A stretch of DNA of 64,000 nucleotides from Escherichia coli (lineage in GTDB: Bacteria; Pseudomonadota; Gammaproteobacteria; Enterobacterales; Enterobacteriaceae): assembly GCF_017348835.2 (NCBI RefSeq), contig NZ_CP071375.1, one strand, 5' to 3'. Under the pieces are notes generated by a model. The model did not search any database, was not told where the DNA came from, and was given only the letters and a program-made list of their open reading frames with translations. The translations under genes and the position numbers were made by a program. Shown one piece after another: positions 60,106 through 61,764 of the stretch (within the stretch, counting starts at the first letter, position 1; each line of letters begins with the position of its first letter).

Positions 60106-61764
60106 ATGTTGCAGCTTAACGAGAATAAACAGTTTGCATTTTTCCAAAGACTGGCATTTCCGCTGCGTATCTTTTTGCTGATTCTGGTGTTCTCAATATT
60201 TGTCATTGCAGCCCTGGCGCAATATTTTACGGCCAGTTTTGAGGACTATTTAACGCTTCATGTACGCGACATGGCAATGAATCAGGCGAAAATTATTGCC
60301 TCCAATGACAGTGTCATCTCTGCGGTGAAAACGCGTGACTACAAACGGCTGGCGACCATCGCTAACAAATTACAAAGAGATACCGATTTTGATTATGTGG
60401 TGATTGGCGACCGGCACTCGATCCGCCTTTACCATCCTAATCCGGAGAAAATTGGTTATCCTATGCAGTTCACCAAACAGGGCGCGCTGGAGAAAGGGGA
60501 GAGCTACTTCATTACCGGGAAAGGGTCAATGGGTATGGCGATGCGCGCCAAAACGCCAATCTTTGATGACGATGGAAAAGTCATCGGCGTGGTGTCGATT
60601 GGCTACCTGGTGAGTAAAATCGATAGCTGGCGGGCTGAGTTTTTATTACCGATGGCAGGTGTGTTTGTCGTGCTGTTAGGGATTCTGATGTTGCTGTCGT
60701 GGTTCCTGGCCGCGCATATCCGTCGGCAGATGATGGGCATGGAGCCAAAGCAAATCGCACGCGTGGTCCGTCAGCAAGAGGCGCTGTTTAGTTCGGTTTA
60801 TGAAGGGCTGATTGCGGTGGATCCGCACGGTTACATTACCGCCATCAATCGTAACGCAAGAAAGATGCTGGGGCTGAGTTCCCCCGGACGGCAATGGTTG
60901 GGTAAACCCATTGCTGAAGTGGTCAGGCCCGCCGATTTCTTTACCGAACAGATTGATGAAAAACGTCAGGATGTGGTGGCTAACTTTAACGGTCTGAGCG
61001 TTATTGCCAATCGGGAAGCTATTCGTTCAGGTGATGATTTGCTGGGGGCCATTATCAGCTTTCGTAGTAAAGACGAAATTTCCACCCTCAATGCGCAACT
61101 GACGCAAATAAAACAATACGTCGAGAGCCTTCGTACATTGCGACACGAGCATCTCAATTGGATGTCGACGCTCAATGGTCTGTTGCAGATGAAAGAGTAT
61201 GATCGCGTGCTGGCGATGGTGCAGGGGGAGTCTCAGGCCCAGCAACAGCTTATTGACAGTCTGCGCGAGGCGTTTGCCGATCGCCAGGTGGCGGGGCTGC
61301 TTTTTGGTAAAGTGCAGCGCGCCCGCGAACTGGGGCTAAAAATGATCATCGTCCCCGGTAGCCAGCTTTCGCAACTGCCGCCAGGACTGGATAGCACCGA
61401 GTTTGCCGCCATTGTTGGCAATTTACTTGATAACGCCTTCGAAGCCAGCCTGCGTAGCGATGAAGGAAACAAGATCGTTGAATTATTCCTCAGCGATGAA
61501 GGCGATGATGTGGTGATTGAAGTCGCCGATCAGGGCTGCGGCGTTCCAGAGTCTCTACGATACAAAATATTTGAGCAGGGGGTCAGTACGCGTGCTGACG
61601 AGCCCGGTGAACATGGCATTGGGTTGTACTTGATTGCCAGCTACGTAACGCGCTGCGGTGGTGTTATCACTCTCGAAGATAATGATCCCTGCGGTACCTT
61701 ATTTTCAATCTATATTCCGAAAGTGAAACCTAATGACAGCTCCATTAACCCTATTGATCGTTGA
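60106..61764 (+). CDS. citA: CitA (DpiB), citrate-sensing histidine kinase
   Basis: ORF 60046-61764; start taken at MLQLNENKQFAFFQ giving 552 aa; H-box LRHEHLNWMSTL. Confidence 0.92.
   Translation: MLQLNENKQFAFFQRLAFPLRIFLLILVFSIFVIAALAQYFTASFEDYLTLHVRDMAMNQAKIIASNDSVISAVKTRDYKRLATIANKLQRDTDFDYVVIGDRHSIRLYHPNPEKIGYPMQFTKQGALEKGESYFITGKGSMGMAMRAKTPIFDDDGKVIGVVSIGYLVSKIDSWRAEFLLPMAGVFVVLLGILMLLSWFLAAHIRRQMMGMEPKQIARVVRQQEALFSSVYEGLIAVDPHGYITAINRNARKMLGLSSPGRQWLGKPIAEVVRPADFFTEQIDEKRQDVVANFNGLSVIANREAIRSGDDLLGAIISFRSKDEISTLNAQLTQIKQYVESLRTLRHEHLNWMSTLNGLLQMKEYDRVLAMVQGESQAQQQLIDSLREAFADRQVAGLLFGKVQRARELGLKMIIVPGSQLSQLPPGLDSTEFAAIVGNLLDNAFEASLRSDEGNKIVELFLSDEGDDVVIEVADQGCGVPESLRYKIFEQGVSTRADEPGEHGIGLYLIASYVTRCGGVITLEDNDPCGTLFSIYIPKVKPNDSSINPIDR

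Follow-up and report, generated by a model that had tools for sequence, protein, structure and literature searches.

The citrate-fermentation locus of this Escherichia coli chromosome carries two long gene overlaps, 32 nt between citA and citB (positions 61733 to 61764, plus strand) and 26 nt between citX and citG (positions 55354 to 55379, minus strand). We consider it likely that both are genuine co-directional, out-of-frame overlaps of phase 1 (3n + 2) that arose by ordinary stop-codon drift and are tolerated owing to their position on dispensable protein ends. The arrangement is part of the standard K-12 annotation and is in itself nothing new, and the overlaps are of an ordinary, well-understood kind. 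The first-pass annotation, which reported both overlaps, was right in its observation and only partly right in its interpretation.

RESULTS

The two overlaps lie in the cit/dpi locus

The window, i.e., the whole 64,000-nt stretch of DNA analysed, ends in 12 kb that are 100% identical to E. coli chromosomes and holds the E. coli citTGXFEDC / dpiBA (citAB) / dcuC citrate-fermentation locus. The genes citT, citG, citX, citF, citE, citD, and citC lie on the minus strand, followed by dpiB (citA) and dpiA (citB) on the plus strand and then by dcuC. A GC-rich hairpin (positions 62423 to 62445), terminator-like on both strands, sits between citB and the convergent dcuC and would mark the end of the citAB transcript. 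According to the RefSeq annotation of an identical E. coli record and to Pfam, dpiB (positions 60106 to 61764, plus strand) encodes a sensor histidine kinase of 552 aa with sCache_3_2, PAS, SPOB_a, and HATPase_c domains, the last of which ends 13 residues before the stop. The response regulator gene dpiA (positions 61733 to 62413, plus strand) encodes 226 aa with a Response_reg domain from residue 8 and an HTH_64 domain (DpiA-like HTH). A kinase with sCache/PAS and HATPase_c, together with a receiver and a DpiA-like HTH, beside the citrate lyase genes, is what defines the CitA/CitB (DpiB/DpiA) two-component system. On the minus strand, citX (positions 55354 to 55905) encodes the apo-citrate lyase phosphoribosyl-dephospho-CoA transferase (183 aa; Pfam CitX at residues 13 to 175), and citG (positions 54501 to 55379) encodes the triphosphoribosyl-dephospho-CoA synthase (292 aa; Pfam CitG at residues 26 to 290). 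All four ORFs pass as real protein-coding genes by Pfam domains, RefSeq names, and hundreds of homologues, and the gene identities proposed at first pass were correct.

The exact coordinates of both overlaps are borne out by the sequence, the ORF list, and RefSeq: PGAP annotation of a 100% identical E. coli chromosome places the four CDS boundaries where our ORF reading does. The K-12 coordinates in a published INRI-seq table (citA 652235, citB 653862, citG 647509, and citX 648035; PMC9825163) give the same overlaps. In each pair, the downstream start precedes the upstream stop on the same strand and in a different frame, which by geometry is a genuine co-directional overlap. The 32-nt stretch encodes CitB residues 1 to 10 and the final 10 residues and stop of CitA; the citB ATG at 61733 precedes the citA TGA at 61762 to 61764, so that the regulator gene does begin inside the CitA C-terminal coding region, as had been noted. 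The 26-nt stretch encodes the CitX C terminus DVDACNVN with its stop (TAA, positions 55356 to 55354) and CitG residues 1 to 9, starting from an ATG at positions 55379 to 55377. The 92-nt citA/citB junction was found in 5,416 of 5,426 complete E. coli genomes, with at least 99% identity in 5,076 of them.

Orthologue N termini support both annotated downstream starts

Many long overlaps stem from mispredicted start codons (PMC2478687), and the true starts of citB and/or citG might lie downstream, leaving no overlap or one of only 1 to 4 nt. The same study, however, concerns overlaps above 60 bp, all co-directional cases of which were judged artefacts, with conserved real overlaps just below that length. 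Misannotated long overlaps, as described by Palleja et al. (2008), exceed 60 bp and involve a gene whose overlapping end extends beyond that of its orthologues; here the lengths are 32 and 26 nt, the N termini of CitB and CitG match those of their orthologues, and the CitA tail length is common to seven species.

For citB, an in-frame TGA at positions 61724 to 61726 (plus strand; three-frame reading and ORF list) makes the ATG at 61733 the earliest possible start of the frame. The sole other candidate before the acidic pocket of CitB, a TTG at positions 61754 to 61756, would still leave an 11-nt overlap with citA and is missing in Citrobacter and Hafnia, where the ATG is the only candidate, while the next ATG further downstream would remove the LIVEDE motif. 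The N terminus MxxPLTLLIVEDE is conserved in 19 orthologues, and an independent gene call in Salmonella also yields a 32-nt citA/citB overlap. For citG, the only canonical starts ahead of the conserved N-terminal helix are codon 1 and codon 3 (ATG, positions 55371 to 55373, minus strand; tandem ATG ATG in many relatives), both of which lie within citX.

Published initiation data were consistent with this reading for citG. In the in vitro ribosome profiling of a synthetic E. coli transcript pool by INRI-seq (Table S2 of PMC9825163), the annotated citG start was detected in five of five replicates, and no downstream alternative was called. The citB start was detected in none of the five, with a citB template that was scarce (22 CPM) and a method that detects 70% of annotated starts and misses 30%. 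The in vivo Ribo-RET values quoted in the same work are zero for all cit/dpi genes because the locus is silent in aerobic culture, and the TRAINSPOTTER N-terminomics supplements contain no dpiA, dpiB, citG, or citX entries. The missing in vitro peak at citB, together with the lack of a Shine-Dalgarno sequence described below, is what speaks for a mis-called start. Altogether, the orthologue N termini back both downstream starts, and no start past the upstream stop in either gene keeps the conserved N-terminal domain residues. Mapped N termini at downstream, non-overlapping starts, the observation that was to refute the first-pass claim, are thus essentially excluded by the sequence. Judged in this way, the annotated starts of dpiA and citG appear sound rather than mis-called, and we regard an annotation artefact as very improbable.

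Both overlap lengths are ordinary for phase 1

Both overlaps exceed the modal lengths of 1 and 4 nt, as had been stated, and the first-pass annotation implied that such lengths are unusual. We found otherwise, as 32 (3 × 10 + 2) and 26 (3 × 8 + 2) both belong to the phase 1 series (8, 11, 14 ... nt). When 37 long ORFs of the window served as proxies for genes, the phase 1 frame met its first stop at a median of 29 nt after the start, and at 32 nt or beyond in 46% of them. The window itself has nine annotated co-directional overlaps, of 1, 4, 4, 4, 4, 11 (cusR/cusS), 26, 28 (ybdN/ybdM), and 32 nt, so that four of nine exceed 10 nt.

Published surveys agree. Among 2.66 million gene pairs, overlaps of 10 to 60 nt are about 4-fold rarer than those of 1, 4, or 8 nt, and among the long ones phase 1 (−8, −11, −14 ...) is several-fold commoner than phase 2, the proposed cause of long overlaps being stop loss without a route to −4 or −1 (PMC10666635); a review quotes more than 80% of overlaps as shorter than 30 bp (PMC12548453). 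Neither overlap length is above chance expectation.

The citA/citB overlap evolves as citB coding sequence

The citA stop is a TGA (positions 61762 to 61764, plus strand) embedded in the citB codons GTT GAG (positions 61760 to 61765), which encode Val10-Glu11 of the invariant LIVEDE. In each of the seven species where the overlap is 32 nt (E. coli, E. albertii, Salmonella, two Citrobacter, Hafnia, and Pluralibacter), citA terminates at this TGA within GTTGA(G/A). The kinase frame continues beyond the regulator's ATG to the first stop that it meets, the TGA made by the invariant Val10-Glu11 codons.

The CitA residues encoded in the overlap come after the end of HATPase_c, past its FSIYIPK motif. 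Among the seven species, the last 10 residues of CitA share 43% pairwise identity, compared to 82% for the preceding 60 kinase residues and 82% for the first 10 residues of CitB. The variable columns number 5 of 11, 1 of 11, and 8 of 10 at citB codon positions 1, 2, and 3, respectively, and the third positions of citB are the first positions of citA in the overlap. This pattern indicates that the overlap evolves as citB coding sequence, with the CitA tail following. Because the overlap-encoded CitA residues form a non-conserved tail past the ATPase domain, selection in this stretch appears, from the substitution pattern, to act almost only on citB. The first-pass claim that the overlaps constrain both proteins' sequences was therefore overstated for this pair, in which the constraint is minimal.

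The junction is also labile. Among 76 loci of the CitAB family, drawn from different species, the overlaps are −4 (20 loci), −8 (8), −32 (6), −1 (6), −14 (3), and −23 nt (3), with rarer lengths of −17 (2), −35 (2), −29 (1), and −38 nt (1), and in the remaining 24 loci the genes are separated by gaps of 0 to 192 nt. Two K. pneumoniae-like citA/citB loci have an overlap of 17 nt, and all of the overlaps of at least 8 nt are of phase 1. In Enterobacter sp. BIGb0383, the A-run before the ATG is one base longer, which places citA in the other frame, where it ends at ATGA; the former CitA tail can still be recognized in the frame that is no longer used.

An older citX/citG overlap with the Shine-Dalgarno sequence of citG

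In all 19 loci holding both genes (Enterobacterales and a Vibrio), the start of citG falls within the citX 3′ end and the two frames stand in the same relation, with overlaps of about 14 to 32 nt. The citX/citG overlap is older than the citA/citB overlap, and its phase has been kept. A GGAGG Shine-Dalgarno sequence of citG (positions 55392 to 55396, minus strand) sits 12 nt before the ATG and derives from the CitX codons Met-Glu-Ala (ATG GAG GCA); its duplex energy of −9.3 kcal/mol ranks in the top 5.6% of the background. Relatives keep ATGGAGG or an equivalent run of purines; there, the Shine-Dalgarno sequence from CitX Met-Glu-Ala (ATG GAG GCx) lies 9 to 12 nt upstream and the citG ATG sits in the CitX codons for (H/N)-D. 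Both initiation elements are placed in codons of the CitX C-terminal helix (M-E-A ... N/H-D), and in vitro citG can initiate on its own Shine-Dalgarno sequence. Past these elements, relatives show free variation both in the CitX tail and over the first ~20 residues of CitG, and the claim of constraint on both proteins did not hold up here either: the overlapped codons are those of a variable CitX C-tail and a variable CitG N-tail.

A CitX search of 1.84 billion representative proteins returned, among the best 150 hits considered, 27 representatives of 400 to 490 aa. In 9 of 10 such long representatives tested, a CitX domain is followed by a CitG domain with a linker of 10 to 25 residues; one of the fusion clusters includes a Stomatobaculum longum protein, and one fusion is named "holo-ACP synthase/triphosphoribosyl-dephospho-CoA synthase" by JGI. 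The E. coli genes have the same domain order, their summed length (183 + 292 aa) matches the 430 to 490 aa of the fusions, and the E. coli overlap aligns to the fusion linker. The Met-Glu pair is not conserved in that linker, which suggests that its nucleotides may serve as a ribosome-binding site in the split genes. In E. coli, unlike in the fusions, CitX and CitG are encoded by two ORFs that differ in frame, with a Shine-Dalgarno sequence and ATG located internally; a single 1-nt indel in the overlap would fuse them. A K. pneumoniae CitG bearing a CitX domain was considered and rejected, as citX of that organism is at a locus separate from citCDEFG (PMC2735749).

The existence of single-chain CitX-CitG proteins in other bacteria, along with the +1 offset of the downstream from the upstream frame that both pairs show, raises the question of whether the overlaps are programmed +1 frameshift sites that yield CitX-CitG or CitA-CitB fusions in E. 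coli. Neither overlap has a visible slippery or prfB-like shift site, however, and relatives differ freely in the overlap sequences. About 35 nt separate the GGAGG from the citX stop, which by the standard of prfB-type sites is too far to stimulate a shift. A search of positions 52000 to 64000 against Rfam gave no match, frameshift elements included. Programmed frameshifting was rejected for want of a slippery site in either overlap, and we give it almost no credence.

Translation of citB and the case for a selected device

No promoter-like site for a citB-only transcript was found on the plus strand in the 3′ part of citA, and since the two genes lie on the same strand with no such site between them, citA and citB are probably on one mRNA. 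In the 25 nt upstream of citB, the best duplex with the 16S 3′ end reaches −3.9 kcal/mol against a background mean of −4.4, a value that 53% of random 25-mers match; the sole Shine-Dalgarno-like pairing is a GTGA (positions 61723 to 61726, plus strand) in the CitA codons K-V-K. In relatives, the Shine-Dalgarno pairing of regulator starts is weaker for long overlaps, with a mean of −4.5, compared to −7.2 for short overlaps and −6.7 for gaps. The predicted RNA fold is no better than that of shuffled sequence at the citA/citB junction (z = −0.28) or at the citX/citG junction (z = +0.45), with no stable structure sequestering the downstream initiation region at either. From the combination of no Shine-Dalgarno sequence above background, no promoter, and no RNA structure, we infer that translation of citB takes place on the citAB mRNA, mainly by ribosomes brought in through citA translation (by coupling or by re-initiation some 29 nt upstream of the citA stop) or else by weak unaided initiation.

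A stricter version, in which citB itself lacks a usable ribosome-binding site and is translated only by ribosomes that terminate on citA and move back ~29 nt from the TGA in citB codons 10 and 11 to the AUG, seems to us improbable. Reporter work predicts efficient termination-reinitiation only at distances of about −8 to +10 nt (PMC10666635), and the −32 and −26 nt found here both fall outside this range, so that citA-citB coupling across 29 nt can be no more than tentative.

A further reading takes the long overlaps as selected regulatory devices that impose strict translational coupling and a fixed CitA:CitB and CitX:CitG stoichiometry, for example through start occlusion and re-initiation. 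Several observations would fit this: the position and phase of the citX/citG overlap are kept over the 19 loci, the citA/citB overlap is fixed at 32 nt in seven species and in more than 5,400 E. coli genomes, citB lacks its own Shine-Dalgarno sequence, the CitX-CitG fusions show 1:1 co-expression to be acceptable or favoured, and overlapping pairs are enriched for complex subunits (PMC10666635). On the other hand, the citA/citB junction ranges from −38 to +192 nt among homologues with a mode of −4, K. pneumoniae keeps citX away from citG, and overlap length equals chance expectation. Moreover, no RNA structure is predicted at the junctions, the distances exceed those at which re-initiation is efficient, and citG initiates by itself in vitro. 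On balance, we think it unlikely that the overlaps are such devices and prefer stop-codon drift tolerated on dispensable ends, although the citX/citG overlap, being so deeply conserved, might itself have been selected for and not just tolerated. That overlap may also keep two enzymes acting in sequence on the prosthetic group co-expressed.

DISCUSSION

The two pairs are cases of the well-described, moderately long phase 1 overlaps surveyed by Huber et al. (2023, PMC10666635, which cites the related surveys of Fukuda 2003 and Cock & Whitworth 2010). They are on the same strand, out of frame, and of the 3n + 2 class (32 and 26 nt), the upstream ORF ends at the first stop within the downstream gene, the length varies with lineage within one phase, and the termini involved are weakly conserved. 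Nothing essential differs, the sole particular being the origin of the citA stop in the regulator's invariant V-E codons. With ATGA and TGATG termination-reinitiation overlaps (PMC6728339, PMC10666635, PMC12548453), they share neighbours in one operon, products that act jointly, and a start near a stop, and citB lacks a Shine-Dalgarno sequence, as coupled genes may; the distances nevertheless set them apart. Compared to K. pneumoniae CitAB/CitYZ and other CitA/CitB homologues (PMC2735749), the kinase-then-regulator order, the domain architectures, and the linkage to citrate lyase are shared, whereas the junction geometry differs: −4 is commonest, and in the sampled genomes only Escherichia, Salmonella, Citrobacter, Hafnia, and Pluralibacter have the 32-nt form.

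As judged from residue conservation, both overlaps appear to sit on the least conserved protein ends. An annotated overlap of a well-understood kind on such ends is an ordinary finding, and its significance beyond confidence in the annotation is small. It may have two uses. A single indel separates the citX/citG overlap from a CitX-CitG fusion, which illustrates that gene fusion and fission can pass via an overlapping intermediate. Because citB lacks a Shine-Dalgarno sequence, dpiBA offers a clean natural test case for re-initiation ~30 nt upstream of a stop in E. coli; if citB were indeed translated only by ribosomes terminating on citA, dpiBA would be a natural E. coli example of long-range backward re-initiation, fixing a low regulator-to-kinase ratio.

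Co-directional overlaps and in vitro initiation

Among the co-directional overlaps of the window are those at the ybdN/ybdM and cusR/cusS junctions, both on the minus strand; starts there were mapped by INRI-seq, an in vitro ribosome profiling of E. coli with five replicates (PMC9825163). The ybdN/ybdM junction (~43219-43246) has a 28-nt overlap in phase 2, the rarer phase. The annotated ybdM start was detected in all five replicates (35-43 CPM), and initiation was also seen at an in-frame ATG 12 nt downstream (93 CPM); therefore, ybdM may have two starts, or its true overlap with ybdN may be shorter than annotated. 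The cusR/cusS junction (~2970-2980) has an 11-nt overlap in phase 1 with the regulator gene first, making this the second overlapping two-component pair within the window, besides citA/citB. No INRI-seq peak was found at the start of the downstream gene cusS (0/5 replicates), and the outcome was the same for citB.

At the citX/citG junction, INRI-seq (Table S3) lists an extra in vitro initiation site at an ATG (55396-55398, minus strand) that precedes the start of citG by 19 nt. This ATG codes for an internal Met of CitX, and its ATG GAG G makes the Shine-Dalgarno sequence of citG. The annotated citX start gave no INRI-seq peak (0/5 replicates).

Antisense and convergent arrangements

A 101-amino-acid open reading frame on the plus strand (59491-59796), lying antisense within citC (58668-59726, minus strand), corresponds to nog1, a "novel overlapping gene" described in EHEC as embedded in citC in frame -2 (PMC4683798). 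PGAP places the citC start at ATG 59726, giving 352 amino acids, and the reading frame can be extended to GTG 59813; the EHEC annotation has this longer form of 381 amino acids.

The genes citB and dcuC converge on a gap of 40 nt, in which lies a GC-rich hairpin with an 8-bp stem (62423-62445), terminator-like on either strand, with a clear T-run on the minus strand only. Two other convergent pairs, hcxA/ybdD (~40247-40250) and fepC/fepE (~27443-27446), are annotated with 4-nt tail-to-tail overlaps.

The regulator gene and its junction in relatives

In three Serratia loci (L010, L011, and L013) and an Enterobacterales MAG (L018), a DpiA-like regulator (~9992-10670), 57-65% identical, lies divergent from citC, with no CitA homologue within ±10 kb. 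The next gene downstream in L010 encodes a LacZ-like GH2 enzyme. These four look like orphan citrate regulators.

The kinase residues P-K-V-K are conserved between Edwardsiella and E. coli. In Edwardsiella (L007/L008, ~9972-9992) they are encoded by CCG AAG GTG AAG, pairing with the 16S 3' end at -8.5 kcal/mol, whereas CCG AAA GTG AAA in E. coli (61717-61732) reaches -3.9 kcal/mol. Thus, the presence of the regulator's Shine-Dalgarno sequence is decided by synonymous Lys codons.

In Enterobacter sp. BIGb0383 (L020, 9990-10010), an A-run is 1 base longer than in Citrobacter, so citA enters another frame and stops at ATGA, giving a 4-nt overlap. The tail NNDGSINPFDR of the 32-nt type is still legible in the abandoned frame, and this locus is a clear case of a long overlap turning into a short one.
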